Source of the DNA: a virus
Lineage: Duplodnaviria; Caudoviricetes
Length of the DNA: 61,263 bases
IMG/VR virus record: IMGVR_UViG_3300032722_000020
Coordinates: 1-61,263 of that record
Reading direction: 5' to 3' (one strand)
The notes below the pieces were generated by a model. That model was not told the DNA's origin and made no database searches. It saw only the letters and a program-made list of their open reading frames with translations. Made by a program: the position numbers and the translations under genes. Positions within the stretch are counted from its first letter, which is position 1, and every line of letters starts with the position of its first letter. This document shows positions 36,057 to 53,641 of the stretch, in pieces.

Positions 36057-36062
36057 ACGATT

Positions 36063-36728: not shown

Positions 36729-36734
36729 CGTATT

Positions 36735-38102: not shown

Positions 38103-38360
38103 ATGAACCTTCACGCCAATTCCATTGCCGCCTTTTCCGAGACTGCGAACGAGCGCACCAGCTTGGAAACGCGCATTCTTGAACTAATGTCCGATGGTAA
38201 TCCGCGCACTGACCGTCAGATAGCGCATGAGTTGGGACACCCGGAACCGCTACGGCCAAGAGTCACGACGCTGGTTGAAGAAGTCAAGCTACACGAAGTC
38301 GGTTCAACGAAATGCGAATAGACACACAAGCGCGTCAGATTAACCCGGCGTTTTATTTAA
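38103..38360 (+). pseudogene. Winged-helix protein with internal TAG at 38319-38321
   Basis: TDRQIAHELG..RPRVTTL..EVGSTKCE*THKRV; the frame continues to the TAA inside the first attC box. Confidence 0.55.
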
Positions 38361-38471
38361 CGTCCCTGCTGAGCCAAGCCGGAACGGGAACGCCCGAAAA
38401 ACAAAATGAAGCGACTACCGGCTTTGGCTCCGGCAGGTGGTTAGACCCAGCGAATAACGACAAACAACAAT

Positions 38472-38864
38472 ATGACACCGACACAAACAGTGGCTACGAA
38501 TGAGCGACAATCTGCTATCCTGCCAAACGGTAATAAAATAATAGACTCCGCAATCGCCAGACAGCTTGCCTTGGATTTAGAGGAATGTGGGAAAGCCCTA
38601 AACGCAATGTCGCTTCGGTGTGAAAGGCTTCTGGACGAACGCGCAGAAGCCTATGAGACAATAAACACCCTGCACAATCTTTGCCTGTCTGCTGAAAAGC
38701 GCGCTCTTAAAAAACGTGATGAAGAAATCGCGCAGATAAAAAACGAGCTGCAATACCTCGTCGAAGTCTGCGAAACCAACTTAGAAACAAAAGACTGGCC
38801 GCGATTCAAATATGCCAAACGCATCGCCGCTGGGTCTAACGACAAGCTGACACACGCCGAATGA
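38472..38864 (+). CDS. Cassette hypothetical coiled-coil protein
   Basis: 130 aa; reads through the AAC box into the next attC. Confidence 0.7.
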   Translation: MTPTQTVATNERQSAILPNGNKIIDSAIARQLALDLEECGKALNAMSLRCERLLDERAEAYETINTLHNLCLSAEKRALKKRDEEIAQIKNELQYLVEVCETNLETKDWPRFKYAKRIAAGSNDKLTHAE

Positions 38865-39742
38865 AAAACCATAAAACAACCAGCGACCGAAGCGAACAAC
38901 CGAGCGCGCCCAACGGCGTTGTGTCCAGCGATTTGTTAGACCCCATTTCAATAATCTCGCTAGGTGCGGGTGTCCAAAGCTCGACAATGGCACTGATGGC
39001 AGCGAGGGGCGAAATCGCGCCTATGCCCAAATATGCCATCTTTTCTGATGTCGGCGCAGAACCAAAGAATGTGTATGACTACCTCGACTATCTGGAAAAG
39101 CTGCTGCCGTTTCCTGTGCTGCGCGTGATGCACAAAGACGGGCTGACGAAAGCCATTGAAAAATCTCTAAAGTCTGGGTCTATCTCTGGAAGTCCGCCGT
39201 GGTTCAGTGCTGGCAAGGATGGAAAAGCCGTGCTGCTATCGCGTGCCTGCACGCATGACTTCAAAATACACCCGATACAACAAGCTATCCGGCGACTGAC
39301 GGGTGCTAAGCGTGGAAGCAAGAAAACTCACGCCGTGCTGTGGATAGGCATATCAACTGACGAAGCGCAGCGAATCAAAGACAGCCGCTATCCGCACTAC
39401 ATCCACCGCCATCCTCTAATCGAAAAGGGCATGAGCAGAAACAACTGTCTGGCATGGATGGAACGGAATGGCTACCAGCAACCGCCTAAATCTTCGTGCG
39501 TGTATTGCCCGTTTCACTCTAACCCGCACTGGCGGCAAATCAAAGACACAGACCCGGCTGGATGGGCGGAAGCTGTGCGCGTGGACAATCTCATCCGAGA
39601 CGGTGTGCGGCGGAATGGAAAGCCGCCAATGTATGCTCACCGCTCACTAAAACCACTAAACGAAATAGACCTGACAACTGACCTCGACCGTGGCCAAGAA
39701 CTACTCTGGGGAAACGAGTGTGAGGGGATGTGTGGGGTCTAA
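38861..39742 (+). CDS. PAPS reductase / PP-loop family protein (cassette)
   Basis: SLGAGVQSS, DVGAE, CTHDFKI, IGISTDE, PPKSSCVYCPF, ECEGMCGV. Confidence 0.85.
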   Translation: MKNHKTTSDRSEQPSAPNGVVSSDLLDPISIISLGAGVQSSTMALMAARGEIAPMPKYAIFSDVGAEPKNVYDYLDYLEKLLPFPVLRVMHKDGLTKAIEKSLKSGSISGSPPWFSAGKDGKAVLLSRACTHDFKIHPIQQAIRRLTGAKRGSKKTHAVLWIGISTDEAQRIKDSRYPHYIHRHPLIEKGMSRNNCLAWMERNGYQQPPKSSCVYCPFHSNPHWRQIKDTDPAGWAEAVRVDNLIRDGVRRNGKPPMYAHRSLKPLNEIDLTTDLDRGQELLWGNECEGMCGV

Positions 39743-39774
39743 CGTGGGCGCTGAGCCGCCCCGGAAAGAAAACC

Positions 39775-40362
39775 ATGAATGAACCAAAGACCGAAGCGAT
39801 AAACGACACGCGCCAACCGGGGTTGGCTCCAGCAACTTGTTATGCTTCCCTGCCGCCAATCCTGGACGCTTGTTGTGGAGGCCGGCAATTCTGGTTCGAC
39901 AAGGAAAACCCGAACGTGCTTTTTGCTGACTGCCGCGTGATGCCTGACAAGGTGGTCGGGAGCGGCAAGGATGCCCGCACGCGCCGCTGCCTGCCGGATC
40001 GTGTCCACGACTTCCGCGCAATGGAATATCCCGACGAGACTTTTCAAATGGTCGTGTTCGACCCGCCGCATCTATTCCTCGGCGAGAATAGCTTCATGGC
40101 TCAAAGCTACGGGCGGCTGGACCGCGAAACGTGGCGCGATGATTTGAGCCGTGGCTTCGCCGAGTGCTTCCGAGTCTTGAAGCCCGGCGGCGTGCTTATC
40201 TTCAAGTGGAATGAATGCGACGTGCCACTTGCGGAAATTCTAAAACTCACGCCGCACAAACCGCTGTTCGGTCATCCGAGCGGCAAAGCACAGAAAACGC
40301 ACTGGTGCGCGTTCTGGAAGCATAACGCTCCGGCTCACCGGCCGGCGCGAGAACAAGAATAA
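39775..40362 (+). CDS. SAM-dependent (DNA adenine) methyltransferase (cassette)
   Basis: ILDACCGGRQFW, VVFDPPHL, ECFRVLKPGGVLIFKW. Confidence 0.88.
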   Translation: MNEPKTEAINDTRQPGLAPATCYASLPPILDACCGGRQFWFDKENPNVLFADCRVMPDKVVGSGKDARTRRCLPDRVHDFRAMEYPDETFQMVVFDPPHLFLGENSFMAQSYGRLDRETWRDDLSRGFAECFRVLKPGGVLIFKWNECDVPLAEILKLTPHKPLFGHPSGKAQKTHWCAFWKHNAPAHRPAREQE

Positions 40363-40366
40363 CGCT

Positions 40367-40645
40367 ATGACTACTCAATCAACGTCCGAACAGCCAGCGC
40401 CCGCGCCGGTTCGCGTGCAGCCGGTGGTTAGAGCGCGATACCGTGTCTCTGACTGGATAAACACCAACACCATGCAGCCGGTCTTCGGCATCCAACACAA
40501 CAAGGAGCGGGGCAAGTGGGTGAACTGTGCGGTGGACGGCACGGCGCTGCTCTACACTAAACGCGAAACCGCCGAGAGACACTGCCGCTGGCTGAATGAC
40601 CCGAAAGGCACTGCGCCGGAATGGTCACAAGACTCAGCGCTCTAA
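40367..40645 (+). CDS. Cassette hypothetical protein
   Basis: Starts inside attC; its stop codon is the TAA of the terminal TCTAAC. Confidence 0.7.
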   Translation: MTTQSTSEQPAPAPVRVQPVVRARYRVSDWINTNTMQPVFGIQHNKERGKWVNCAVDGTALLYTKRETAERHCRWLNDPKGTAPEWSQDSAL

Positions 40646-40679
40646 CAGTTAATTCAATCAACAGAGTTGCTATTATCAC
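40640..40679 (-). other. Putative attI
   Basis: Minus strand ...TTGAATTAACTG|TTAGAGC directly 5' of intI, with no attC hairpin following. Confidence 0.65.
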
Positions 40680-41663
40680 ATGGGGCTTATCCAAAAACTG
40701 AACGATGCGATGATTGAGCAAAGCCTTGCGCGCTCAACTATGCAAGGCTACCGCTTTTGGAATCGCAAGTTCTATGGCTATGTGAAGAAACCGGCGAGCC
40801 AATGGCAAGGTGGCGATGTAAAGGCATTTTTACTGTGGTTGTATGCTGAAAATTATTCACCGGTTTCGCGCAAGCAGGCTTTGAATGCGCTGGCTTTTAC
40901 ATTCAAGCACGTTCTCATGGCAGACATGGGTAATTTGGAACTGCCGCCCATGCCGAAGGTGACTCAGACCAACCGGATTTTGCCATCGCCGGATGATTTG
41001 CAGCGCATTTTTGCCCTAATGAACGGTATGCCTAAAACAATGGCGCAACTGATGGCCGGATCTGGCCTGCGCGTGGCAGAGTGTTGCAAGCTGCGGGTGC
41101 AAGACGTGGACATTGAAGCCCGCACGATTCGCGTTTGGTTTGGAAAAAATGACAAGTGCCGGCGAACGATCATTCCTGATTCTCTGGTGCCGAAATTGCA
41201 GCGGCACCTGGCATTGCGAAAGGCACTGCATGACCGCGATCTAGCCGATGGACGCGGCTTGGTGGTTTTGCCGGGACGGCTGGCTAACAAATACCAGCAG
41301 GCTAACCAGGAATTTCGGCAGCAATGGTTTTTTCCGTCCACGAAGTTTCGCGGGCAGTATCGTTGGCACGCGGTTCCTGAATGTTTAGGAAAACCAATGC
41401 GCCGGGCTGTAAAGGCGGCGGGAATATTGAAGCACCTTACCCCGCATTGCCTGCGCCATTTCTTCATCACTTACAGTCAGCGCGTCGGAAATGACCTGAA
41501 AACAGTGATGGAATGGGCCGGTCATCAGAACCCAGAAACAACGATGATTTACACACACCCGGACGCGGCGAACGGGGTTAGTCCGTTGGATTATATGGTT
41601 GCCAGAACAATCATTACAACCCACCCGATGACACCAAGGCGGATTGAATTTCACCACGCATAA
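40680..41663 (+). CDS. intI: Integron integrase-type tyrosine recombinase
   Basis: Catalytic R-K-H-R-H-Y intact (GLRV, GKND, HCLRH, AGH, MIYTH). IntI-specific insertion HDRDLADGRGLVVLPGRLANKY..QWFFPS; N-terminal QALNAL. Confidence 0.92.
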   Translation: MGLIQKLNDAMIEQSLARSTMQGYRFWNRKFYGYVKKPASQWQGGDVKAFLLWLYAENYSPVSRKQALNALAFTFKHVLMADMGNLELPPMPKVTQTNRILPSPDDLQRIFALMNGMPKTMAQLMAGSGLRVAECCKLRVQDVDIEARTIRVWFGKNDKCRRTIIPDSLVPKLQRHLALRKALHDRDLADGRGLVVLPGRLANKYQQANQEFRQQWFFPSTKFRGQYRWHAVPECLGKPMRRAVKAAGILKHLTPHCLRHFFITYSQRVGNDLKTVMEWAGHQNPETTMIYTHPDAANGVSPLDYMVARTIITTHPMTPRRIEFHHA

Positions 41664-41697
41664 ATGTCCACAATCCAGACAGATTTATTTGCTACGC

Positions 41698-42066
41698 ATG
41701 AATCTTCCGATTCCATCACCAACCCTAGCTCGACTTAACCCGCACTTATTTAGCAGTGGTCAGTCCGTTGCTAGTTGCAGCGAACCAGTTACCCGCGAAA
41801 GTGACTTGCATGAATCCATCTTTGCCGAATGTCGGAAACGCGGTTGGATAGTGTTGCACGGTTCTATGTCAGAACGGACGCATCGCACGGCTGGCGAACC
41901 GGATTTTGTGATTCTGGCTAATGCGGGACGGTTGATGTTAGTGGAATGTAAGTCGCGCGGCGGTAAGTTATCGCCAACGCAAAGCGCGATGAAGGCGCAC
42001 GCGGAGAAGTTAGGCCATACGGTTCACGTTGTCAGGAGCATGGATGAATTTTTTAAGATTTTATGA
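41698..42066 (+). CDS. VRR-NUC domain nuclease
   Basis: GEPDF..VECK..GKLSPTQ..VVRS. Confidence 0.88.
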   Translation: MNLPIPSPTLARLNPHLFSSGQSVASCSEPVTRESDLHESIFAECRKRGWIVLHGSMSERTHRTAGEPDFVILANAGRLMLVECKSRGGKLSPTQSAMKAHAEKLGHTVHVVRSMDEFFKIL

Positions 42067-42138
42067 GTGAAAACAAAATGACGATGTTCATTTTTGAAAT
42101 TTACAGTAACTAAACCAACCGAAACCAAAAACAAAAAT

Positions 42139-42948
42139 ATGACAACTGCCATTGCAACTACATCAAAACCAAAAACCGAAACCAAGCCAAACGCGCTCGT
42201 AAGCCTCGCCGCTCGCCTGCAAGTTGATCCCGCCCGCCTGCAAACCATCTTGAAATCTACTGTGTTTGCCAAGGCTAATGATGATGAGTTCGCCGCGCTC
42301 GTTATTGTCTGCCAAGAGTATCGGCTCAATCCACTGCTCAAAGAGATTTACGCATTTCCCGCAAAGGGCGGCGGCATCTGCCCGATTGTCAGCGTTGACG
42401 GTTGGAACAAAATGCTCATCACGCACCCGGAATTTGATGGCATTGAATATGTTCGTGGGGATGATTCCGAAGGCAATCTTCAATCCTGCACCGCGACGGT
42501 CTTTATGAAGAACCGTTCGCATCCGATGGTCATTACCGAATACCTGTCCGAGTGCAAGCGGAATACCGAGCCGTGGAATCAAATGCCGTGGCGGATGCTT
42601 CGTAACCGCACCACCTGTCAGGCCGCGCGCATGGCCTTTGGTTTCTCTGGGGTCTATAATGAAGATGAAGCCAAGACCATCACCGTCGAGTCAACGGTGA
42701 TTCCCAACGAACCGCCGCCGAAGATTATTGCTGCGCCGGCTACGACCACGGCACAAGCCGAACTGGAAGCACTTATCACCGGAGAAGGTTACACCTTTGA
42801 CCATCTGCAAAAGTTCGGGATTGAAACTGGAAACATTGCGAATGCTGATAGCATCGGCGGATTCGATGAAATCAGCACGGACGACGCCAAGCGGTTGCTC
42901 AAAGCTAAGACTGGTTTGTTGAACGGTTTGAAGGCGATTAAGGGATAA
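42139..42948 (+). CDS. bet: Red-beta/RecT-family single-strand annealing protein
   Basis: YRLNPLLKEIYAFP..PIVSVDGW..PW...MLR..QAARMAFGFSGVYNEDE. Confidence 0.92.
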   Translation: MTTAIATTSKPKTETKPNALVSLAARLQVDPARLQTILKSTVFAKANDDEFAALVIVCQEYRLNPLLKEIYAFPAKGGGICPIVSVDGWNKMLITHPEFDGIEYVRGDDSEGNLQSCTATVFMKNRSHPMVITEYLSECKRNTEPWNQMPWRMLRNRTTCQAARMAFGFSGVYNEDEAKTITVESTVIPNEPPPKIIAAPATTTAQAELEALITGEGYTFDHLQKFGIETGNIANADSIGGFDEISTDDAKRLLKAKTGLLNGLKAIKG

Positions 42949-43026
42949 AATCTTACCACAAAAACCGTGAACGCCTGCGGAGAAAGTAATAGGCGTGACA
43001 GCCGGAGAGACGGCAACCAATTTTTT

Positions 43027-43953
43027 ATGAGCGAATCACTAATCATCATGCCGTTGGAAAAGCTGCCGGTGGCGCAAATCGCACCCATCGCAATCCATTT
43101 GCGCGACGAGGCTCTGGCTTCATCCGCACTGATTGGTAAGGTGGAAAACGCCGAGCAGAACAATAAATGTTCCGCCGCCCGCAAGCAAATCAAAGGGCTG
43201 CTATCGCTGTTTGAATCCCAGCGCAAAAAGTTAAAAGAACCAATCTTGGAAGCGGGACGCTACTTGGATCGAATCGTTGCGACTGAATCCGAGGACTTGA
43301 AACGTGAAGATGGCCGGCTGGAAAACTTGGAAAAAGATTTTATCCGTGCCGAACTGCGTCGGAAATCCGAGGAAGAAGAATTGCAGCGCAAGGAACTCGC
43401 CCGTATCGAAGCCGAGAAGCAAGCCGAACTGCTCCGTATCGCCCGCGAGCAGGCGGCGCGCGAGGAAGAAGCGCGACGGGTTGCCGCCGAAGCTGAACGC
43501 ATTGCCAGCGAGGAGCGCGAGGCCGCTGAAAAGCTGGCACGGGAGGCAACCAACAAGAAACAGCGTGAAGCCGCCGAAGCTGCCCGCATCGAGGCCGAGA
43601 AGCGCGCCGAAGCCGCCCGTATTGAGGCCGAACGGATTGCAGAGCTTGCTGCCGAAACCGCCCGCCAGCAAGCACAGTTGGCCGTAGAACGCGCCGAAAC
43701 CGCAACCTATGTCGAATCGCGCCCGGTCGAGATAACACGCGCGAAAGGGCAGTCCGTTCGCAAGGAGTGGGTGATTGAACAAATTAACGACTTTCAACTG
43801 ATGAAGGCGCGGCCCGACCTAGTTCGGAAGGTGGAATGGGATATGGTTGGTTTGAAACAGGCATTAGCCGCTGGTGAGAAGTTGCCCGGTGTCCGCGCCC
43901 GTGAAGATATATCCATTGGAACTCGCGCGGGAAAGGCGCTGATTGAAGTCTAA
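43027..43953 (+). CDS. Coiled-coil recombination-module protein
   Basis: RKKLKEPILE, long E/A/R coiled coil, C-terminal LPGVR. Confidence 0.65.
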   Translation: MSESLIIMPLEKLPVAQIAPIAIHLRDEALASSALIGKVENAEQNNKCSAARKQIKGLLSLFESQRKKLKEPILEAGRYLDRIVATESEDLKREDGRLENLEKDFIRAELRRKSEEEELQRKELARIEAEKQAELLRIAREQAAREEEARRVAAEAERIASEEREAAEKLAREATNKKQREAAEAARIEAEKRAEAARIEAERIAELAAETARQQAQLAVERAETATYVESRPVEITRAKGQSVRKEWVIEQINDFQLMKARPDLVRKVEWDMVGLKQALAAGEKLPGVRAREDISIGTRAGKALIEV

Positions 43954-43957
43954 TCCC

Positions 43958-44188
43958 ATGACCATCAAGACCCACATCGAATTAGAAGTGGAAGTAGCGT
44001 TCGACTATGTAAAAGAAGAACGCGAAACCCGTAACTGCCCCGGATCGCCGGAGAGTATTGAAATTACTTCCGTCACCATTTTACAAAACGGGGCGGAATT
44101 GACGTTGACACCACAACAGTCATATCAGGTCGAAACCGATTTCTGGGATGCGTTGGAAAAGATGAGGAAAGAACCAGTTGAACCATGA
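43958..44188 (+). CDS. Hypothetical acidic protein
   Basis: 76-aa ORF containing CPGSPESIEITSV. Confidence 0.65.
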   Translation: MTIKTHIELEVEVAFDYVKEERETRNCPGSPESIEITSVTILQNGAELTLTPQQSYQVETDFWDALEKMRKEPVEP

Positions 44189-44228
44189 ATTTTAACCGAC
44201 AAAACATAATGCACAAGGAGGCTTCAAT

Positions 44229-44894
44229 ATGAAGCCAGACGCCTTTATGCCGCTTTACGGCGACGACTTCATCAGCGCGGTAAAGATGCTGCCAAAGGAT
44301 GTCAAATGGATTTACCTTGAATGCTGCTGGCATTACTGGTCGCACACGCATTGCGAAGGATTGCCCGATGACGATTCCCTGTTACAGGAACTGTCACAGG
44401 TTCAGTTACCAGATGTGTGGCGCAGGGTGAAACAGCTTGTGTTCGACAACGACAAGTTCTTTGTTTTGGACGGCGGCAAGTGGCATCAAAAGCGTTGCCG
44501 CGAGCTATATCTAACAGCTAAAGAGGCTTACGCCAAAAAGGTTCGCCAAACATCCGCTGCTAGGGCTGCTGTTACAAAGACTGTTACAGGCTCTGTTACA
44601 GTCCGCAAACTAAAACCAGAACCAGAGTTAATAGAAGATAAGACTAATGGGCTTCGCCCAATAGCTTTCAATGGAAGGCTTTCACCGATACAGGCCGCAA
44701 CCGCCACCAGATTCGCTTCTGTGCTTGGATGTCAATGGGATCAAGGAAATGGAAGAAAATGGATGAAGCGGTGCAGAGACGAAAGAATTAGGGCAGAGCG
44801 AGTCATTAGCGAAGTGGAAAATGCAATTAAGGAAAACCGGGTTAAAACCACGCCCGCGCAATACGCGGAGCAGATTTGGAAGGAGTTTGTATGA
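44229..44894 (+). CDS. Replication initiator-like protein (YdaU/DUF1376)
   Basis: FMPLYGDDF..Y....HYW..GLPDDD..WHQKR. Confidence 0.8.
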   Translation: MKPDAFMPLYGDDFISAVKMLPKDVKWIYLECCWHYWSHTHCEGLPDDDSLLQELSQVQLPDVWRRVKQLVFDNDKFFVLDGGKWHQKRCRELYLTAKEAYAKKVRQTSAARAAVTKTVTGSVTVRKLKPEPELIEDKTNGLRPIAFNGRLSPIQAATATRFASVLGCQWDQGNGRKWMKRCRDERIRAERVISEVENAIKENRVKTTPAQYAEQIWKEFV

Positions 44895-45079
44895 GAAAAA
44901 TGACGCAAGATCAAATGGAACTTTTCAAAAAAGTATGTTTGCAGAAAAACCATGAGCAGTTTTAGGCGGCTTGTGAATCAGTAAAAGAAAACGGTGAATA
45001 TCCTATTGATTGGTTTTCAATCGTCCGACAGTCAGGCATGGCTGACTTCTACTACAAAAACAAATTTTCAGAGCTATAA
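44891..45079 (+). pseudogene. Small ORF interrupted by TAG at 44963-44965
   Basis: ATGA-coupled start; frame stays open after the TAG until the TAA before the next gene. Confidence 0.45.
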
Positions 45080-45091
45080 AACAACAACCTT

Positions 45092-45319
45092 ATGATCATC
45101 ACCAACAAACCAAACCTTCATTGCCCGAACTGCTCCAACAAGTTGCGATGGTGGCACGCTACCAAGATGCAGGACGACGAGAGCATTGTTGTTGTGCATC
45201 GTGATTGCAGACTGACAGCCGCACGGTGCAAGTATGTTCGCAACGTGGTGCTTGCGATAGTGCTAGGGCTGGCTAGTGCTGGCGCGGCGGTGATGTTCGG
45301 ACATTTGGCGAGTAAATAA
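45092..45319 (+). CDS. Small Zn-finger membrane protein
   Basis: CPNC..HRDC plus C-terminal TM segment. Confidence 0.6.
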   Translation: MIITNKPNLHCPNCSNKLRWWHATKMQDDESIVVVHRDCRLTAARCKYVRNVVLAIVLGLASAGAAVMFGHLASK

Positions 45320-45330
45320 AAAATAAAAAT

Positions 45331-45507
45331 ATGACTGAACCAATCAAACTCCGGCGTCCGGCGAAATATCTGCACACCGGCAAACATGACTATGATGACG
45401 GCTTCCGAGTCGGAAGCAACTGCGCCAAACGCCGCACTATCCGTGCCTTCAAGCGCGGGCAACGTCGTGAAAGTCTCAAATACATGACTCAAGACGAAGT
45501 GGCCTAA
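45331..45507 (+). CDS. Small basic protein ending in an attC box
   Basis: 58 aa; stop codon within AGTGGCCTAAA. Confidence 0.55.
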   Translation: MTEPIKLRRPAKYLHTGKHDYDDGFRVGSNCAKRRTIRAFKRGQRRESLKYMTQDEVA

Positions 45508-45540
45508 AGCTCCGCATTAGCGACCGCCGACCAAAACGCT

Positions 45541-45774
45541 ATGATTGCAACTGAGACGCCCAACGGCGGTTCACTCGATGCGGTTGTTAGGCATACACCG
45601 TGGACACAAGATGAAGATGATATGCTGCGCTACTGGTATGGGTGCGCGAATGGCGCAATGACCCCATACCGGCACATGGCTGAATATCTGAACAAACACT
45701 TTCACGGCGGCAAACCAATCCGAAAAGTCGGTGCAATAGCTCGCCGCGACGGAAAAATAAACTACGGCAAATGA
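45541..45774 (+). CDS. Myb/SANT-like HTH small protein (cassette)
   Basis: PWTQDEDDMLR..MAEYLN..R; starts inside attC. Confidence 0.65.
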   Translation: MIATETPNGGSLDAVVRHTPWTQDEDDMLRYWYGCANGAMTPYRHMAEYLNKHFHGGKPIRKVGAIARRDGKINYGK

Positions 45775-46176: not shown

Positions 46177-46539
46177 ATGGGATACATATCTGAAACAATC
46201 GGCAATCTGGAACACGAGCAACGGACGGCAAACAAGCTGGCCGACGCGATAGCCCTGCTGCGCGAACTCGAATGGTCGGGATGCGTGAACACCGAAATAC
46301 TCGCGGTGAACACCTGCCCGTGCTGCTACAACTGGAAACCAACAAGCGGTGACGATGATTTCTGGAAAGGCCGCGAACTGCGGAAAGGACACACGCCGGA
46401 CTGCAAGCTTGCCGATTTGCTGAAAGCATCTAACGCGGACATCAGGCGCGGCGACGTGAACCGCGACAGCGGAACAGCAAGCGCCAACGGCGGTTGGCTC
46501 CGGCGACTGGTTAGGCATAGCGATATAAAATCTAAATAA
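46177..46539 (+). CDS. Cassette hypothetical protein (Cys/His motif)
   Basis: LEWSG..CPCC..GHTPDC; reads through the next attC. Confidence 0.65.
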   Translation: MGYISETIGNLEHEQRTANKLADAIALLRELEWSGCVNTEILAVNTCPCCYNWKPTSGDDDFWKGRELRKGHTPDCKLADLLKASNADIRRGDVNRDSGTASANGGWLRRLVRHSDIKSK

Positions 46540-46540
46540 A

Positions 46541-46777
46541 ATGAAAACCGAAACCAAACGAACCGACAAGGAACGCGAGCAACAAGCTGCGACTCCCGAC
46601 AAACCGCGCTCGGCATATCTTGCGCGTAAATTCTTTCCGCACCTCGGCGAATATCACGGACAAGCCTTGGTCGAACAACTAATCCGCGCCGCCGCTATGC
46701 CTAACGAAAAAGCTGACCTACCGCCGACCGGGGCGCGTCAGCCGCGTAGCGGAACTGAAGGCGGTAACGGAGGTTAG
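46541..46777 (+). CDS. Cassette hypothetical protein
   Basis: 78 aa; ends inside attC. Confidence 0.55.
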   Translation: MKTETKRTDKEREQQAATPDKPRSAYLARKFFPHLGEYHGQALVEQLIRAAAMPNEKADLPPTGARQPRSGTEGGNGG

Positions 46778-46820
46778 GTCCGGCGCTTTTTTAGCTGAAC
46801 GTCAAAAAAAACAGAAAATT

Positions 46821-47219
46821 ATGGGAACAAACTACTATCTGAAAACGAATATCTGCCAGCACTGCAATCGCGCTGGAGAAGAAAAACACATCGGCAAATC
46901 TTCCGGCGGCTGGCACTTCGCGCTGCACGTCGAGCCGGAAAATGGCATCGCAACTCTGGATGACTGGAAAGTGCTGTTCGCGCAACCAGACTCCAAAATC
47001 TTCGATGAATACGGCAAAGAAATCGCTGTGGATGAAATGCTGAAAATCATCACCGAACGGTCATGGTGGCAGCGAAAGAACGACTGGAAGAAAGAACAAT
47101 ACGAACAAAACCACGCCCAACCCGGCATCAATGGACTCATCCGCAACAAAATAGAACCCGACCACTGTGTCTCGCACGGCGAAGGAACGTGGGACTGCAT
47201 CGTGGGCGAGTTCAGATAA
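46821..47219 (+). CDS. Phage-type hypothetical protein (cassette)
   Basis: MGTNYY..CQHC..HIGKSSGGW..IFDEYG. Confidence 0.8.
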   Translation: MGTNYYLKTNICQHCNRAGEEKHIGKSSGGWHFALHVEPENGIATLDDWKVLFAQPDSKIFDEYGKEIAVDEMLKIITERSWWQRKNDWKKEQYEQNHAQPGINGLIRNKIEPDHCVSHGEGTWDCIVGEFR

Positions 47220-47254
47220 AGCTCCTGCTGACCTACCGCGCACGTTAGATGCGA

Positions 47255-47503
47255 ATGTCCAAACTCAAAAAATATATGGCAAAAAATAAAACAAGCAACA
47301 GACACGAAAATCAGCAACATCCCAAATGGGAATATATGATTAACGACTTGGCGTTCCTGAACACTGAAAAGGAAACCATCCTGAACCTTCTTGGCCAAGA
47401 TGGATGGGAAGCCGTCGGATTTACCGGCAATGGCTCGGTGCTTCTAAAAAGGAAAGCATCTAAACGTAGAAAGCTGATCCACCGCCGACTAAAATCTAAC
47501 TAA
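47255..47503 (+). CDS. DUF4177-like protein (cassette)
   Basis: KWEY...LNLLGQDGWEAVG...LLKR. Confidence 0.7.
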   Translation: MSKLKKYMAKNKTSNRHENQQHPKWEYMINDLAFLNTEKETILNLLGQDGWEAVGFTGNGSVLLKRKASKRRKLIHRRLKSN

Positions 47504-47512
47504 AATAAAACT

Positions 47513-48070
47513 ATGATTCACTGCCCACGTTGCAACTGTCCTTTTGAAGCGTCAGTAACAGAATTTTCTTGCTGCCCAAATTGTTCACTTGAAGTTGAAC
47601 CAATCGAACCAAAACCTATGACCACCACCCAACAAAGCTCACCAACCAAAGAACAAATCGCCAAGCAATGCACTTGTGGTTTGAAGCCACATCCGCAAGA
47701 TGGATGTCCTGCTATTTCTCCACAAATCCCGACGCCGAGGACGGATGAAATCCATCGAATTAACACCAAGATGAACGTCCATGATGAATATGGCAATCTG
47801 TTAGACCACGCCCGCACTCTCGAACGCGAACTCATCACCACCAAACAACTCGCCGAACGCTACGAGCAAGAGCGTAACGAGTATCAAGAACAACTCCTAG
47901 CTGTCCGGCGTGAGTTAGAGGAAGCGAGGAAGGGCAAGGAACGATACGAGTATGTTCGGCGTCTGAATCCAACAAGTTTCGCTTCACTGTTCACTCAAAA
48001 CATCCGAACCGGCAAACACTTTGACGACATCGTTGACGATGCTATTAACCAAGCGAAAGGCAAACAATGA
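47513..48070 (+). CDS. Hypothetical phage protein
   Basis: CPRC/CPNC; TPRTD..ARTLEREL motif. Confidence 0.65.
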   Translation: MIHCPRCNCPFEASVTEFSCCPNCSLEVEPIEPKPMTTTQQSSPTKEQIAKQCTCGLKPHPQDGCPAISPQIPTPRTDEIHRINTKMNVHDEYGNLLDHARTLERELITTKQLAERYEQERNEYQEQLLAVRRELEEARKGKERYEYVRRLNPTSFASLFTQNIRTGKHFDDIVDDAINQAKGKQ

Positions 48071-48291
48071 AAACGGCAGAACAGTGGGCTAACCGAATAC
48101 AAAACAGCAAAGAGCCGTGGGCAAAACTTGTGGGTGAAATCCAATCCGACGCCGCGAAAGCTGCGCTGACGCTGGCGGCTGAAATCGTGCGAGACACGCC
48201 TACTCTTGAACTGGACAGAGACGTTGTGACAAGCACGCTGTCTCTTGAAATATTGAAGAAGCGCGACAACCTCAAACTGGAACAACTATGA
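48067..48291 (+). CDS. Hypothetical protein
   Basis: ATGA-coupled ORF. Confidence 0.6.
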   Translation: MKTAEQWANRIQNSKEPWAKLVGEIQSDAAKAALTLAAEIVRDTPTLELDRDVVTSTLSLEILKKRDNLKLEQL

Positions 48292-48406
48292 AAATCTGGT
48301 GGAAAGGCGAACCATTGATTGTCGGCAGTCTGCGCTGGCTTGTCATTGACAACGACCTTTTGCAAACGATACGAGAAGCATTAAACAAACTGAAAGCATT
48401 AAGAAA

Positions 48407-48610
48407 ATGAACAAACCTATGGCAAAAACAAAATGCAAATCGTGCGGCGTAAAATGGACAGACCACAAGGGCATCCAGCCTACCTGCGCCGCGCTTCAAG
48501 TCGCCATCAAAGCCCTTGAACAAATCTCGGTCATGCCAAGGAATCGGCGGGCGCGGCATCTGGCAATCGGCGCACGCTCGTTTATCGAAACGCAATTATT
48601 TCAGCAATGA
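48407..48610 (+). CDS. Hypothetical protein
   Basis: CKSC..HKGIQPTC. Confidence 0.6.
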   Translation: MNKPMAKTKCKSCGVKWTDHKGIQPTCAALQVAIKALEQISVMPRNRRARHLAIGARSFIETQLFQQ

Positions 48611-49290
48611 AACGCATACTGCTAACCATCGCTCTAGCAAGCCAAGCGCACGCCGGAATCGAGTTGTGCGGATTAGAATTTTCTCCCGTTCCTATGCCGG
48701 ACGACAGCCGTATATGTTCCCAATGGGTTCACAAGAGCGGCGAAGCGCAAGCGGGCATCGAAGCCAATCAAGGAGGCTACATTCGGCCAATGGTCGTGAC
48801 GCCTCCGAAAATAGGCACGCTTGCGGCGGGAGAAAAACATTTAACGGAACGCGAGCGGGTAGTAGCCCGTAGTGGTCGCGCCACTTATCAAACGATGCAA
48901 AGGGCTGTCGAAGCTGATGCGTTGAATGATTCGCAGGTAAAATCCTGCCGTTCCGACCATTTCGTTGACGCCAACAAAATGCTTTGGGCGTTGGCGCAGA
49001 TCGAGTCAGGCGGCAACGACTACGCTCACGGACGGCACGGCGAGGTTTCGCGCTACCAGTGCATGAAGCGAGTCTGGCGCAATGCGACGGCGCAACCGTA
49101 TTCCGCTGCCACCAACGCGCAGATAGCCGCCACCGTAACGCTCGCGGTGATTCGCGCCCGCACCGGCCAAGACCCCGCTACGCTCACGCCTGCGGCTTTT
49201 GCGCTCGCGTGGCATTGCCCAAACGCCAAGCACCTAAACGCCGAGCAGCGCGACTACGTTGACCGCTTCACGAATCTGGTGAGGAAATGA
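48607..49290 (+). CDS. Signal-peptide lytic transglycosylase/lysozyme-like protein
   Basis: MKRILLTIALASQAHA|G; ALAQIESGGN..GRHGEVSRYQ..W. Confidence 0.72.
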   Translation: MKRILLTIALASQAHAGIELCGLEFSPVPMPDDSRICSQWVHKSGEAQAGIEANQGGYIRPMVVTPPKIGTLAAGEKHLTERERVVARSGRATYQTMQRAVEADALNDSQVKSCRSDHFVDANKMLWALAQIESGGNDYAHGRHGEVSRYQCMKRVWRNATAQPYSAATNAQIAATVTLAVIRARTGQDPATLTPAAFALAWHCPNAKHLNAEQRDYVDRFTNLVRK

Positions 49291-49429
49291 TTTATGAACA
49301 AACTCCGATACAAATACTTCTACTGGAAACGCAAGCTGGCAATCTTTCTTGGGCTTTGCCCGACGTGTTGGCAGCGCGTGAACTACACCATCACCGGCAG
49401 GCCAATCTGCCCAAACTGCGCGAGATAAT

Positions 49430-49819
49430 ATGAACACTGAATTGAGAGAGTTGGATGCTTGGATTGCAGAAAATGTCATGGGATTGAAACCGTGGAAGGA
49501 AACGCAGGAAAGAATAACCTGCATTCTTGAGCCAAACGAGTTTGTTCTTTCAATTCCATCTAACATTGTTCGCGCCCGAATTTGCAGCAATCCAACTAAA
49601 AACTTTCAGCCAACGATAGACGCCGCCGACTCTCTGGAAGTCTTGAAGAAGTGCGTAGAAATGCGAGGAGAAGTGAAAATCTTCAAGGCTGGCGACGGCG
49701 AATGGGTGTGTCGCAAGCCGATTGGAAGCGGTTACAATAGCACGCTACACATTGCCACCGCCACTACCCTCGAACTCGCCATCTGCCGCTTCGCCAGCAA
49801 GCTGTTTGAAAAACAATAA
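49430..49819 (+). CDS. Phage ABA-sandwich/YopX-neighbour-like hypothetical protein
   Basis: RELDAWIAENVMG..FQPTIDAAD..LAICRFA. Confidence 0.65.
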   Translation: MNTELRELDAWIAENVMGLKPWKETQERITCILEPNEFVLSIPSNIVRARICSNPTKNFQPTIDAADSLEVLKKCVEMRGEVKIFKAGDGEWVCRKPIGSGYNSTLHIATATTLELAICRFASKLFEKQ

Positions 49820-49832
49820 ACCAACTGCACCT

Positions 49833-50057
49833 ATGCTATCCAAAATTATTCCATCCGTTCGCGCCAAGTTTCTAACCATATACAAACAGACCAAAGACGA
49901 CCTCGAAAAACTCTCCGCAAATGAATTAAGCTATCTCGCGCACATGGCCGAAGAAAACAAAACCAGCCAGCAATACAGCACCCGCGCCGCCGCCGAGATA
50001 GTTGCCGCTGCCTGTCAGATTATCCAAGAAAAAAAAGACAAATTAAACTTGCCCTAG
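49833..50057 (+). CDS. Hypothetical protein
   Basis: ORF beginning MLSKII within the operon. Confidence 0.5.
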   Translation: MLSKIIPSVRAKFLTIYKQTKDDLEKLSANELSYLAHMAEENKTSQQYSTRAAAEIVAAACQIIQEKKDKLNLP

Positions 50058-50096
50058 AACTTACATCGCAGACTTTTTATCTCGTAAATCCTGACC

Positions 50097-50615
50097 ATGA
50101 ATACTTCTACCGACACGCGATTAAATCCGAACGAGATACCCGCGCCCTTGCATAATGGCAATCACATGGTCGAATCTCATGCCACTGACGAGGCGGAATT
50201 TATAATTCGGATCGCCGCCCGCTATCCACTAACTGAATCGCAAGCGTTGGAAATCGCCAGTGAAGCGCAGGAACATTACGGCGGTGCCGACGTGCCGCGC
50301 GCGGAGTTTTGGCGCGTTCATGGCATGATTGAGCGGGGTTTTCTTGTGCTGCGCGCCTATTCTAAAAAAGGCGGCAACCGCGACATGGCGGAACGGTGCT
50401 TGTGGTTGCTGCTCGGTTTTCCGGTCTTGGCCGGAGCGGATTCGATGGTGGACATTATTAAATACACCGGCTTTAGCAAGCAGACCGTTGACAAATGCCT
50501 TAAACACTTTCAAAAGGAAATGCCGGAACTACCGATACTGGAAGGGCAGCGCGACATTGAATCACGCAAAAATATGACACTGGCTAGAATTAAACAAATC
50601 AAAAAACATGAATGA
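50097..50615 (+). CDS. HTH-containing protein, candidate late regulator
   Basis: SMVDIIKYTGFSKQTVDKCL; sits at the early/late boundary. Confidence 0.55.
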   Translation: MNTSTDTRLNPNEIPAPLHNGNHMVESHATDEAEFIIRIAARYPLTESQALEIASEAQEHYGGADVPRAEFWRVHGMIERGFLVLRAYSKKGGNRDMAERCLWLLLGFPVLAGADSMVDIIKYTGFSKQTVDKCLKHFQKEMPELPILEGQRDIESRKNMTLARIKQIKKHE

Positions 50616-51183
50616 TACCACCATCGAAACCTACACTGATCGCGCTCACGCGATGAAGCAAGAGGCCGCGCAAGCTGCCTTAAAAGAACTCACCAAAAAG
50701 TTTGCACTGTTCAAGGAAGCGGTTGCTAACGGTCGTGAATCCACCGTTGAAGCGGTCAACCTGGCCCGCGACATGGGCGATACCATCTGGGAAATTACCG
50801 GACACGAAAAGCTGTTGCCGGCGGAATTTAACCAGCTTGCTCTGGCTCTGCCTGATGCGGGACTGGCTTTTGCAAAGGAGTGTTTATCGGTTCGCCGACA
50901 ACTGGACAAGCCGGTGACGGATTACAACGCCGCCCGGCCATTGTGGGACAAACTGCTTATTCAGCTTGACCTAATCCCTAAACCGGCGCGCGGCGAGCAG
51001 AAACTTCACAGCAAGGAACACGTCGAAATGTTTCTGGCAAGCGTGATTCGGATTAATAACGAATCGGCGCGACTAATCAAGACTGATCCGATTGAACAAT
51101 GGCCGTCGTTTTATCGCCAGAAATTTATTAACGATGCGAAGCCGATTCACGACCTTTACGAACAAGCCATTGCGTTGAAATAA
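50608..51183 (+). CDS. Hypothetical protein
   Basis: 191-aa helical ORF. Confidence 0.65.
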   Translation: MNDTTIETYTDRAHAMKQEAAQAALKELTKKFALFKEAVANGRESTVEAVNLARDMGDTIWEITGHEKLLPAEFNQLALALPDAGLAFAKECLSVRRQLDKPVTDYNAARPLWDKLLIQLDLIPKPARGEQKLHSKEHVEMFLASVIRINNESARLIKTDPIEQWPSFYRQKFINDAKPIHDLYEQAIALK

Positions 51184-51371
51184 ATCCATGAAAAATCACA
51201 CACGCTTTTCTAAAGCATCCGGCAGCGAGTTAGCCAAACTTTGCAAACTCGCCCAACGCGGCTGGAAACCCGGTGCCGGTAAAGTTGGCGATTGGCTGCG
51301 GTCAATCCGCCGCGAAAAACGCCGGTCAGGTTCTTCGCAAACCGAGTCGGCGATGGAATAGGCGGCTACGC

Positions 51372-52310
51372 ATGAGTAAGCGTAAGAAAAAGCAAATTGC
51401 AAAGCCAGCCGCGCCAGTTTTACCAGAACCAACTCCTGATGAAATTGAAAAGCAGCGGATTGAAAGCCGTTTCATCGAAATCGGACGGCTTAACAGCGAT
51501 AAAGAAAAACGGCTACGCGATTTGTATTTCATCTGGCGCAATCCATTAAGTGACGAAGGTAAGAAACAAACGCTTCGCAAAGATGAGATTCAGGAATTAC
51601 TAGACGCAAAAATAATCGCTTTACCAAAAGATGACCCGGCGGGAAGCACCGGCCCCGCTTTGTCGGATGTTGATGTGTGCGATTCGGGGGGCGAACTGGC
51701 ACGCCGGATGATGCTGCATTTTCAAAATCCCGACAAGACAAGCAAGCTGCGGAATGAAATCGTTAAACAAACGATTAGTGATTGGAAGGCCCATAGGCGT
51801 TTGGCTTCAACCATTCCACCATTCCCGACCATTAAGGGTGGTCGCACACGCTATTCGCTCCGGGCGGCAATCGAATGGTTTAATAATAACCTGTGGCACG
51901 CCTGGCGGCGCGATCCAGCCCAGACCAACGGGGCGGAAGCGAGTCCGCTTGTGCTGATTGAGGAATTGCGGTTAGTGGCGGAACGGGCCGAACTGGAAAA
52001 AACCTTGTTTGATATTGAGGTGGCGAAGGGCGGTTATTTGGCTACGGAAAAATGCGCGGCGATTTTGGCTGGAACCATGCGGCAATCACACGATTTTTTG
52101 AAGGGACTGATGGAAAATGATTCGCCGGAATTGTTTGAATTATTCTGGCAGGGAATCGGTTTGACGCCGGAACAAATCACCGCGTCCAAAGAATTTCAGG
52201 CGAAGGAATACCGGCGGATAATCGACGAGGTGGAAACGGAAGCGTCGCGGCGAGCGAATGAAAACGCGGCGCGAATCCAAACGCAAGTGAAGCATGATCT
52301 CGGACAATAA
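51372..52310 (+). CDS. Putative terminase small subunit (Nu1-like)
   Basis: KQTISDWK..P.P..RYSLRAAIEWF winged helix, then coiled coil ending EVAKGGY. Confidence 0.6.
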   Translation: MSKRKKKQIAKPAAPVLPEPTPDEIEKQRIESRFIEIGRLNSDKEKRLRDLYFIWRNPLSDEGKKQTLRKDEIQELLDAKIIALPKDDPAGSTGPALSDVDVCDSGGELARRMMLHFQNPDKTSKLRNEIVKQTISDWKAHRRLASTIPPFPTIKGGRTRYSLRAAIEWFNNNLWHAWRRDPAQTNGAEASPLVLIEELRLVAERAELEKTLFDIEVAKGGYLATEKCAAILAGTMRQSHDFLKGLMENDSPELFELFWQGIGLTPEQITASKEFQAKEYRRIIDEVETEASRRANENAARIQTQVKHDLGQ

Positions 52311-52328
52311 AATTAACGAAAAAATACT

Positions 52329-52637
52329 ATGAAAAAGGAAAACCTTGTCAGACTACTAACAGCGATAATCTCCGGTGCTTTATTAGTCGCGTGGATTATT
52401 CGACATAAATCACCGCACGCAAATTTTGTCATTCCACCAGAGTATTTAGTGGTGACTATGGATACCAACGCCATCGCAAATCCACCGACGATTACTTTTA
52501 AGATCAGCTTTGACGGGACGAATTGGGAAAAAGTCGAATCCATAAAACTCAGTCCTGAAAGCGTGCAATACATTGCAACGCCGCCAATCATAAAAAGCGT
52601 AAAACTTCAAGTTATAGAAAGTATAAACACACATTGA
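52329..52637 (+). CDS. Small membrane-anchored protein (lower GC)
   Basis: N-terminal TM; ISFDGTNW motif. Confidence 0.55.
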   Translation: MKKENLVRLLTAIISGALLVAWIIRHKSPHANFVIPPEYLVVTMDTNAIANPPTITFKISFDGTNWEKVESIKLSPESVQYIATPPIIKSVKLQVIESINTH

Positions 52638-52682
52638 TTCCTAACGCCTCAAGTGTTAGGTGCGAAATAACGACAATCTAAT

Positions 52683-53045
52683 ATGAAAGAAATAATAGAA
52701 ATCTTGAACGAACTCGCGGGAGAAATCCACGAGCTAAACCATAAGTGGTGGCACGATAAAAACGGCCAACCGCTGCAACGCAACAAGGGCGAACTGCTCT
52801 GCCTCATGCACTCGGAAATCTCCGAGGCGATGGAAGGCGAGCGGAAAGACCTGATGGATGACAAGCTGCCGCATCGCAAAATGGCAGAGGTGGAACTGGC
52901 CGACGCGCTCATCCGAATCTTAGACTACGCCGCAGGATTCAACTACGACATCGGCGGAGCAGTCTTTGAAAAACTGCAATACAACGCCACGCGGCAAGAC
53001 CACACGCACGAAGCGCGCGAACAAGCCAACGGCAAGAAATGGTAA
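52683..53045 (+). CDS. MazG-like NTP pyrophosphohydrolase
   Basis: LCLMHSEISEAMEGERK..EVELADALIRILD..EKLQYN..R. Confidence 0.88.
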   Translation: MKEIIEILNELAGEIHELNHKWWHDKNGQPLQRNKGELLCLMHSEISEAMEGERKDLMDDKLPHRKMAEVELADALIRILDYAAGFNYDIGGAVFEKLQYNATRQDHTHEAREQANGKKW

Positions 53046-53269
53046 CTAACGAAAAAAGATGAGCCACCGGCAACCCACGACTATGCAAACCAATAACTCT
53101 TGCGAATTACTGAAAGCCCAGACAAATCGCTGATCTAAAAGCTGAAAATGCCGAACTGCGCCGACACCTAGCCGACGCGGTAAAATCGGTGCTAGAAATC
53201 CGCGACTTGCTCGACCCTGACGGAAATCTGTGCGTCAAAGACGCCGCCGTAAAACTGAAAGCTAAAATC

Positions 53270-53614
53270 ATGGAAACAACACTAGAAAAACCAAGTGCCG
53301 CCGCAAATGCCAGCGACAAGGCGGATTCGCCTGCGATGCCTTGTTCGGAGAAAAAACCAGTGATAATCCGTGGCCGTGCAATATGCCACGGGGCTGACCT
53401 TCGGTGGTCTAGCCTGCCAATCATAAACCTTCCGCCCAACACAATCAAAGTTCGTCGGCGCATCAGAAATGATCGCTTCGCATCGGTGTTCGTAAAAACA
53501 AAAACCGAAGTCCAACACTGGAGGCTCTGTCCAGTAGGAGATAAATTCAATGGTGTAACCGAACTCTATCTCGACCTACTGCAAGGGGTGAACGCCTTTT
53601 CTCCGAACAGTTGA
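53270..53614 (+). CDS. Cassette hypothetical protein
   Basis: Start lies in an attC remnant. Confidence 0.5.
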   Translation: METTLEKPSAAANASDKADSPAMPCSEKKPVIIRGRAICHGADLRWSSLPIINLPPNTIKVRRRIRNDRFASVFVKTKTEVQHWRLCPVGDKFNGVTELYLDLLQGVNAFSPNS

Positions 53615-53641
53615 ATATACCAGGCCACTTTGTATAACCTA

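Follow-up and report, generated by a model that had tools for sequence, protein, structure and literature searches.

The early region of a lake-water phage (Duplodnaviria; Caudoviricetes), known from the IMG/VR virus record IMGVR_UViG_3300032722_000020 and analysed here over 61,263 nucleotides (the window), contains an array of attC-type recombination hairpins and small genes adjoining a gene for an integron-type integrase (intI). In integrons, recombination through the bottom strand of attC sets promoterless genes the right way round behind the promoter Pc. According to the data presented below, the phage probably possesses an integron of its own, in which the attC sites have classical geometry but all cassette open reading frames (ORFs) lie on the bottom strand. 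The parts of a complete integron were found side by side: intI at positions 40680-41663, a candidate attI at 40640-40679 and four cassettes at 38361-40645. About 20 related viral contigs share the same pattern of genes on the attC bottom strand, so that we are dealing with a phage integron lineage that keeps the recombination geometry, yet consistently breaks the gene-orientation rule.

The intI gene is read from the plus strand and encodes a tyrosine recombinase of 327 amino acids (IntI) that resembles integron integrases by its matches to TIGR02249, IntI1 and VchIntIA. It is composed of a SAM-like N-terminal domain (PF13495) and a catalytic domain (PF00589). TIGR02249 is matched with 223.7 bits over model positions 1-313 of 315, while the score with XerC is 2.5 times lower (87 bits), and the best match among solved structures is VchIntIA of Vibrio cholerae (2a3v, E 2.4e-45). 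An extra segment near patch III sets IntI proteins apart from Xer and phage integrases. In the phage protein, which is 37% identical to IntI1, the alignment runs without a break through this IntI-specific segment LPGRLANKYQQANQEFRQQWFFPS: residues 197-220 align gapless to both IntI1 and VchIntIA, and the next loop is about 6 residues shorter. Residues R131, K156/K159, H256, R259, H282 and Y291, which we take to be catalytic from the alignment to IntI1 and VchIntIA and from general knowledge of the family, are invariant across 21 relatives of this IntI. Directly 3' of intI and also on the plus strand (41644-43953) lie genes for a Holliday-junction-resolvase-like endonuclease, RecT and an exonuclease-like ORF, i.e. 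a full recombination module adjoins the integrase gene; junctions produced by IntI recombination are thought to require replication for their resolution.

Relatives of this integrase are numerous and come mostly from environmental samples. At E<=1e-20 it is matched by 358 proteins, nearly all of them metagenomic, and the best 120 are 55-91% identical to it. An alignment-based scan of viral contigs gave at least 17 IntI loci with 41-63% identity, while a scan of the same contigs with the single protein gave none. The picture in prokaryotes is different. One genome per species was scanned there (about 185,000 genomes), and among the best 80 loci kept only one contained a full-length relative with identity above 50%, on a 2.4 kb contig of a Chthoniobacter metagenome-assembled genome; one more was a 63-residue fragment at a contig edge, and the next were ordinary bacterial IntIs with 33-40% identity. 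These data support the view that the integrase represents a distinct and apparently largely viral lineage, and in this sense, as a lineage, the distinct phage pool supposed in the initial annotation of this DNA stood up well.

Eight attC-type hairpin sites, designated A-H in their order along the window, and several remnants were identified by repeat finding and reading. They are imperfect palindromes of 89-114 nt, which on the plus strand start with YTAAC-G..CTGAGCC and end with GGCTCCRGC..GTTAGRC, and all attC elements are present in them: inverted R boxes RYYYAAC/GTTRRRY, L boxes, an unpaired spacer and a variable loop. Six of these sites were aligned with four more from the viral contigs L004 and L005. 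All ten share one fold of 19 pairs, 10 of which show compensatory changes, and two single-base bulges are located in the 3' arm of the plus strand, at positions 16 and 23 from the 3' end. The covariance model built from this alignment on the plus, gene-sense strand (R1) scores the six window seed sites at 66-99 bits on the plus strand and also detects D (33.7 bits, E 1.5e-7) and G (31.2 bits, E 8e-7), neither of which belonged to the seed, while the minus strand of the window sites does not exceed 17.5 bits. In an extended set of 68 sites from 25 sources pairing was registered in 96.1% of cells versus 71.2% after shuffling and 33-42% with partners slid, although this alignment was fitted to the model, which favours its pairing figures. 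Changes on both sides were found for 17 of the 19 pairs, which was matched by none of 500 shuffles. The outer helix formed by the R boxes is paired less perfectly (90.5%) than the inner one (97.5%), as expected if recombination splits R boxes.

Three arrays with cassette orientation taken from annotation served as a reference: class 1 arrays in a P1 phage record (L001), a fragment of the host super-integron in a Vibrio anguillarum phage (L072) and the array of Shewanella phage M16-3 (L073). In class 1 sites the 5' arm of the gene-sense strand consists of RYYYAAC, a 5-nt spacer and an L box, which has one extra base; the other arm is made up of the partner L box, then a spacer of 5-6 nt, then GTTRRRY. 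In the window it is the minus strand that shows such an arrangement, and on the plus strand the extra bases belong to the 3' arm. The initial annotation, which read canonical attC on the minus strand with the extrahelical base in the left arm, was right on this point, and folding with covariance models led to the same strand assignment. In L001 four R1 matches (43, 41.5, 39.1 and 23.6 bits) fall on the minus strand, opposite to the resistance genes, and a fifth (22.7 bits) falls on the plus strand of the dfr cassette, whose gene is on the minus strand. In L073 and L072, both with cassette genes on the minus strand, 11 of 12 and 14 of 16 matches are on the plus strand, leaving one and two, respectively, on the minus strand. 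A second model (R2), made of 20 reference sites on their gene-sense strand and weakened by poor alignment of the 3' arm, recognised window sites B, C and E on the minus strand only (16.9, 8.9 and 8.7 bits). Because R1 matches reference attCs antisense to their cassette genes, the plus strand of the window is, judging by the sequences compared, the classical bottom, i.e. recombining, strand. This agrees with the definition of the bottom strand by 5'-RYYYAAC-3' in R' and extrahelical bases near L'' in excerpts of Nivina 2016 (PMC5027507), where the labels G16 and T23 of attCaadA7 also coincide with our counts 16 and 23, provided that both are numbered from the same end.

The same models define how attC sites are oriented relative to the integrase. 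With all loci oriented by IntI (duplicates L007/L024, L025/L026 and L040/L041 included), 46 R1 matches were found on the IntI-sense strand, mostly just upstream of intI. In the reference integrons the attC bottom strand is likewise on the intI-sense strand. Since IntI-sense matches are obtained in phage and reference loci alike, the strand relation between attC and intI is classical: array 1 of the window is placed upstream of intI as usual, and it is only the ORFs that are flipped.

That the genes really are on the bottom strand follows from two types of data. A codon-usage model trained on the large genes of the phage gave a positive margin for 7 of the 8 plus-strand ORFs of array 2 (the attC cluster downstream of intI described below) and a negative one for all five longer minus-strand ORFs overlapping them. 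In other loci the stretches between adjacent R1 matches were scored with codon models trained for each locus separately. In the reference arrays (21 stretches) 17 clear and 3 weak calls fell on the strand opposite to the attC bottom strand and a single clear one on the same strand, with no weak same-strand calls; the single one corresponds to a methyltransferase cassette annotated as reversed. In other phage loci (52 stretches) the proportion is turned round, with 29 clear and 14 weak same-strand calls versus 2 clear and 7 weak opposite ones, and the window itself (6 stretches) gave five clear same-strand calls, one weak opposite call and nothing in the two remaining classes. Locus L036, with 12 sites and an IntI of only 30% identity, was kept apart; its strand calls were mixed and mostly weak. 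Calls based on the longest ORF (40 same versus 18 opposite in phage loci) turned out to be noisy and were replaced by the self-trained codon models. Homology to known families gave an independent view. At E<=1e-5 matches to 40 PHROG families were obtained with 48 same-strand array ORFs and to none with the 38 opposite-strand ones. Among the same-strand cargo DNA methyltransferases are represented by many families; PAPS reductase appears twice, and a deoxyribosyltransferase, a sigma factor and an FtsK-gamma protein also occur. In L005, for instance, cassettes for a zinc-ribbon/FtsK-gamma protein and an N6/N4-type methyltransferase were seen at 4101-4457 (minus strand) and 3700-4000, and the frame of this methyltransferase reads through the right arm of attC (ELLDP). 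Thus, the placement of every cassette ORF on the plus strand, claimed initially for the window, holds, and the survey of attC-to-ORF orientation proposed together with it separates viral loci (29 to 2 in clear calls) from reference ones (1 to 17). Based on these sequence data one can conclude that reversed orientation is the rule for the whole phage lineage.

Array 1 looks intact. Its distal first site, attC A (38355-38446, R1 81.2 bits), precedes a gene of 130 amino acids at 38472-38864 that belongs to no known family (codon margin +0.105 per codon, weak PHROG match only). Site B (38834-38941) scores 90.4 bits with R1 on the plus strand versus 17.5 bits on the minus strand, where R2 gives its 16.9 bits. 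The PAPS-reductase-like gene of this cassette (38861-39742; phrog_424, E 1.2e-42, residues 30-293) begins within the loop of attC B, and its stop codon TAA is at the same time part of the next R box. Site C (39737-39845, 91.4 bits) has the left R box GTCTAAC and a right one, GTTATGC, whose reverse complement GCATAAC serves as the left box of D; its cassette encodes a DNA methyltransferase (39775-40362; phrog_954, E 2.2e-65, residues 27-185). The last site, D (40320-40433), is followed by a gene of 92 amino acids at 40367-40645 with a codon margin of +0.118 per codon. All these sites and genes are on the plus strand, as intI is, i.e. the cassette genes are co-directional with the integrase gene, as originally proposed.

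The stop codon TAA of the cassette D gene lies within a lone box, GCTCTAAC, at the attI junction; this box is followed by AGTTAATTCAATCAACAGAGTTGCTATTATCAC and then by the ATG codon of intI. This segment (40640-40679, plus strand), consisting of the R box CTCTAAC and a conserved motif AGTTAATTCAATCAAC..GTTGC that extends up to the start codon, is our candidate for attI. A motif of this type, with variable RYYY, AAC and then AG(T/G/C)..AAT..AAC..GTT.. about 35-40 nt before the start of intI, was seen in the window and in each of the 13 other loci inspected, with further matches to a regular expression, while the exact 27-nt word was not found in viral contigs. Comparison of related phages marks the same point. 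Their homology starts at the AAC of attI, with unrelated cassettes upstream of it, in the pairs L022/L033 (from 9958), L022/L025 (from 9965), L025/L033 (from 9963) and L019/L023 (from 9962/9921). The closest relative found, L154, with an IntI 91% identical to that of the window, aligns from position 40642 onward, i.e. from CTAAC of the attI box. Upstream of attI another cassette is found there, accompanied by an attC of its own that lies on the same strand (R1 19.4 bits). The right box of this attC, GTTAGCC, is the complement of the junction GGCTAAC. Homology breaks at AAC together with the turnover of cassettes correspond to the behaviour of attI with the bottom strand on the plus strand. In L014 an attI-like motif GCTAAC AGTGTATTAGGACAAAC at 2714 follows a four-site array and no IntI match was seen in that stretch; this array may have lost its integrase.

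A natural variant points to the unit of exchange. Contigs of four lake/freshwater runs were compared with the window over positions 36000-54000, and two of them contain the joint 40321->40642, one from X5 (depth 3.2, side 30) and the other from X8 (depth 5.0, side 74). This joint skips 320 nt (40322-40641) from the R box of D to the attI box, so that attC D is missing together with ORF 40367-40645. Were the unit a gene with the attC after it, attC D would have remained, so the variant supports a unit of attC followed by the gene. Along with the conserved attI-like AAC motif and the homology breaks at this AAC, the variant bears out the attC-then-gene unit advanced in the initial annotation. 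Two further joints, 38291->53138 and 46321->53744, were set aside because their sides measure only 21 letters.

Correspondence of R boxes between neighbouring sites was traced in 58 pairs of adjacent sites, 45 of them with clean AAC boxes and 36 of these informative. The right R box fits the left box of the next site better than that of its own site in 31 of the 36 cases (worse in 4, one tie), and perfect matches occur across the ORF in 33 of 45 pairs, but within the site only in 9 of 45. In the window the chain runs as A->B GTCTAAC, B->C GTCTAAC, C->D GCATAAC and D->attI CTCTAAC. This bookkeeping agrees with mobile cassettes; it is symmetric and carries no information on polarity. Only six pairs of homologous cassettes, all distant, were found across arrays; mapping of crossover points from them failed, the flanking attCs of the two pairs examined being at background identity.

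Taken together, these observations suggest the following scheme. The early operon would carry intI with attI directly upstream of its start codon and four mobile cassettes upstream of attI. On the bottom strand a site is composed of the 5'-RYYYAAC box and then a bulge-free arm, so that IntI, acting as it does in classical integrons, would fold the plus strand, cleave it between AA and C and exchange the folded attC with attI or with a further attC. Read the way it is transcribed, the cassette would then be C, attC, ORF and ...TAA, with the start codon in or just after the hairpin and a stop codon that often coincides with TAA of the next R box. A captured circle C-attC-ORF-TAA would land between the array and intI, and captured genes would be transcribed in the direction of intI along with the early operon, driven presumably by read-through from a phage promoter instead of Pc. 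With genes on the bottom strand, newly captured ones would be promoter-distal and intI remains downstream of the array. Catalysis by the phage IntI, cleavage exactly between AA and C and co-transcription of cassettes with intI are in this scheme all conjectural, as they were deduced from the nucleotide sequence. The phage array would also lack a Pc, and phage cassettes would be silent in bacterial integrons, or incompatible with them in expression; the silence in a host integron follows logically from the geometry.

Several observations weigh against this interpretation. The IntI score (223.7) is below the curated TIGR02249 cut-off of 265, R2 matches to the window sites are weak, and many alignments used for counts were fitted to the model. 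The phage loci include the 2 clear and 7 weak opposite calls mentioned above, three of the weak ones (L015) being obtained without training data. The joint 40321->40642 reads GCCTAAC and not GCATAAC expected from clean excision between AA and C, and it is known from two low-depth contigs (3-5x), one of which contains a nearby SNP; it therefore comes from a diverged strain and shows the unit, not the exact bond cleaved. An attC of type A recurs in L005 with 92% identity and both flanks different, which strict linkage of one attC body to one gene does not predict. Two pairs of homologous cassettes (55-76% amino acid identity) have linked attCs on neither side, identity of the sites being at background (0.56-0.63 versus 0.62 +/- 0.06). 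Finally, half-sites and boxes AAA/TTT in arrays 2 and 3 should not recombine.

The last point leads to the alternative that the arrays are fossils of an integron inherited by the phage lineage, in which cassettes became fixed as early genes, the sites are dead and orientation was set by selection on the fixed genes. We consider it unlikely as an explanation of the whole locus, but arrays 2 and 3 do show signs of decay. Array 2 corresponds to a cluster of attC sites lacking integron integrases (CALIN; at least two attC, no adjacent intI) and contains four sites, E-H, at a distance of 3.8-5 kb downstream of intI. In E (45502-45592, 66.3 bits) the left R box has AAA instead of AAC, in F (46044-46152, 99 bits on the plus versus 8 on the minus strand) and H (46699-46795, 77.4 bits) the right R box has TTT instead of GTT, and G (46428-46516) is a right half-site only. 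Array 3 has nothing but weak or half sites (K, a mini palindrome and a weak R1 match), so arrays 2 and 3 are partly decayed, with G and, further on, J and K reduced to halves. Even in array 1 site D reaches only 33.7 bits. On the other hand, the AAC/GTT boxes of array 1 are intact and their bookkeeping is perfect, IntI is full length with conserved catalytic columns, and the cassette content varies between close relatives right at attI. Besides, in the four lake/freshwater runs the bin 46217-46817 with the G-type attC has a summed contig depth of 242-1147 versus about 1-40, mostly 2-10, elsewhere. This is 20 to several hundred times the depth of the phage backbone and implies many different carriers and contexts.

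Nearly the same low likelihood, perhaps slightly lower, should be ascribed to the possibility that this IntI lineage cleaves the other strand, the unit being then a classical gene-then-attC with nothing inverted. The sites are near-palindromic and have AAC/GTT boxes on both strands, many plus-strand ORFs end in TAA of the box before a hairpin, which resembles the classical layout, and the symmetric bookkeeping of R boxes cannot decide. Asymmetric features speak against it. Positions of bulges and spacers fit the classical bottom strand on the plus strand. At intI the array ends in a lone AAC box and a non-hairpin motif, with a complete hairpin at the distal end, which is classical only if plus is the bottom strand. 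The natural variant has lost attC D with the downstream, not the upstream, ORF, and ORFs B and C lack a plausible start codon beyond the hairpin.

Much less probable is that the hairpins are intergenic RNA or DNA elements of the phage, such as terminators, mRNA stabilisers or translation signals, that merely resemble attC, and the recombinase is an integrase for lysogeny. The hairpins would indeed be transcribed within the sense strand, start codons are located in or beside their loops, and no other tyrosine recombinase was found among the window ORFs scanned. However, R1 recognises genuine attCs of class 1, Vibrio and Shewanella arrays, the R boxes are chimeric as recombination predicts (see the difference between outer and inner helices), the recombinase groups with IntI and not with phage integrases, terminator-like sites occur at chance, and the clade is nearly absent from the species-representative genomes scanned, which would be unexpected for a lysogeny integrase. 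As for real genes on the minus strand with spurious plus-strand ORFs and classical cassettes, to which one might be inclined by the longest ORFs of array 2 being on the minus strand (124, 110, 151 and 187 amino acids), it is hardly credible with negative coding margins and no family matches for these ORFs, strong homologs of plus-strand ones and the blank PHROG result for opposite-strand ORFs of related loci.

The integron of the phage, as we read it, shares with classical ones (class 1; chromosomal integrons of Vibrio and Shewanella) a recombinase of IntI type with the IntI-specific segment, attC hairpins with R/L boxes, bulges in one arm and a variable loop, chimeric R boxes between neighbours, the attC bottom strand on the intI-sense strand, and the array with attI upstream of the 5' end of intI. 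It differs in that the cassette ORFs occupy the bottom, not the top, strand of attC and are read towards attI and intI, in that attI ends only about 35 nt from the start codon of intI, the element being placed inside the phage early operon, and in that extra attC clusters are located downstream of intI. According to excerpts of Nivina 2016 (PMC5027507), classical cassette ORFs occupy the top strand, Pc drives their transcription away from attI, and there are "few exceptions". Single reversed cassettes of this kind, which have their own promoters, do occur in classical arrays, e.g. the methyltransferase cassette L072 6066-8169; what is an exception there is the rule across the phage lineage. 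In Treponema-type integrons (the inverted integron-integrase group) intI is transcribed towards attI and the cassettes come after intI, as stated in parts of PMC3607928 and of the preprint of Cury et al. (10.1101/030866). The co-directionality of intI and cassette genes is common to both systems. In the Treponema type, however, the integrase is flipped relative to attC, while in the phage it is the ORFs that are flipped, and intI keeps its classical position and strand: it is transcribed away from attI, with the top strand of attC opposite to intI.

Integrons in phages as such have been described before. Excerpts of Qi et al. 2023 (PMC9892861) report phage genomes with intI, attC and cassettes, as well as recombination of phage attC sites with attI1 through IntI1. 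The complete integrons considered there (Vibrio anguillarum phages, P1, Shewanella M16-3) are copies of host integrons or fragments of them, with cassette genes in classical orientation and integrases of 30-38% identity to the present IntI. Flipped ORFs and the present lineage are not mentioned in these excerpts. Full-text searches of the literature gave no published description of the lineage or of the bottom-strand-gene rule, the supplementary attC tables of Qi et al. 2023, which possibly contain relatives, lying outside this search.

If the interpretation is true, capture by a bacterial integron would leave a phage cassette in the wrong orientation relative to Pc, and a bacterial cassette in the phage would be antisense to early transcription. 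Owing to the flip, the recombinogenic strand would also coincide with the non-template strand of the early operon. Hairpins could then be exposed by transcription at the time of infection, which could tie the shuffling of cassettes to infection. The cargo would be largely orphan DNA methyltransferases along with other candidate counter-defence genes, making the system a phage-side counterpart of bacterial "defence biobank" integrons. We offer only tentatively the general idea of a virus-specific integron lineage with its own cassette pool, which is separated from that of bacteria by orientation and not by chemistry, shuffles in a transcription-coupled manner and carries counter-defence cargo; on present evidence it is somewhat more doubtful than plausible. 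If the system is active, phages own site-specific cassette exchange for accessory early genes, methyltransferases being prominent among those that can be named, and the orientation rule belongs to transcription of the host element, not to the recombination system. It would also mean a very abundant environmental pool of cassettes, which orientation-blind integron surveys would call ordinary. With start codons often inside the hairpin, these cassettes provide a natural test of how attC and a gene become joined.

The remaining features of arrays 2 and 3 are all on the plus strand. Eight small ORFs of array 2 (58-132 amino acids) occupy 45092-47503; the one at 46821-47219 has the sole family match in this array (phrog_12436, E 5e-7). 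A short remnant, site I (47215-47250), and the left half-site J (47458-47492) were read by eye, gave no R1 match and flank ORF 47249-47503. In other contigs left arms of J type are joined to right halves of G type, and joints among the left arms of F, J and K and the right half of G reflect other members of the site family and were rejected as genome rearrangements. In array 3 a low-GC block (52311-52661) contains ORF 52329-52637, a weak R1 match at 52311-52388 and the mini palindrome CCTAAC..GTTAGG at 52639-52661, the R1 scores of the block being 17.6 and 9.6 bits. The joint 52310->52662, found in one X4 contig, was dismissed as a clean excision, as 12 other letters stand in between. Next come a gene for a MazG-type pyrophosphatase (52683-53045; phrog_5658, E 8.2e-53) and the left half-site K (53043-53080, repeat family D5, read by eye). 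The initial annotation also proposed that arrays 1 and 3 end in a bare AAC-AGTT site. This is true for array 1, where the word at 40644 belongs to the conserved attI-like motif; the one at 53606 at the end of array 3 has no support in related phages, since no AACAGTT-type site was found before the terminase gene in the related L031 and L018. The word AACAGTT itself occurs 6 times in the window versus 7.2 expected.

The phage genome is circular, about 60.6 kb, since positions 1-631 and 60633-61263 of the window make a 631-nt end overlap with 93% identity. This degree of identity suggests that the circle was closed across two co-occurring strains, and a mixed population was probably the source of the assembled record. 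The genome comprises genes for capsid, terminase and portal proteins, a leftward block, plus-strand genes of the tail region, an IS1595-type transposase and early genes, the latter forming a long plus-strand run from about 36.0 to 53.6 kb in which the integron sits. The IS1595-family transposase gene (32627-33475, minus strand) is located between the tail genes and the switch to the early region. Scans of the window for sigma-70 promoters (17 versus 15.4 expected) and terminators (33 versus 33.0 expected) were at chance, and the host may use other signals; the consensus scan, the only search made for Pc, revealed no such promoter beyond chance. No Rfam family was matched in the window at gathering thresholds. 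Low-GC hairpins at 14059-14139 and 5270-5328, with weak matches to R1 and R2 (8-13.5 bits), are probably terminators in intergenic gaps and not attC. ORF starts are devoid of a Shine-Dalgarno-like purine run, and A-rich stretches of the type AAAAATATGAC, which make up repeat family D10, precede start codons at 38455, 42122, 45314 and many other places; this may reflect translation signals of the host. A minus-strand ORF of 963 amino acids (9906-12797) contains a complete DNA polymerase III beta sliding clamp at its N-terminus (a clamp fusion), and adjoining it is a gene for a large polyvalent protein of 1142 amino acids (6372-9800, minus strand; LPD29, DUF4942). Among strains of the lake runs early ORFs show in-frame length variants at 47860-47945 (84 nt), 48180-48262 (81 nt) and 48837-48982 (144 nt skipped).

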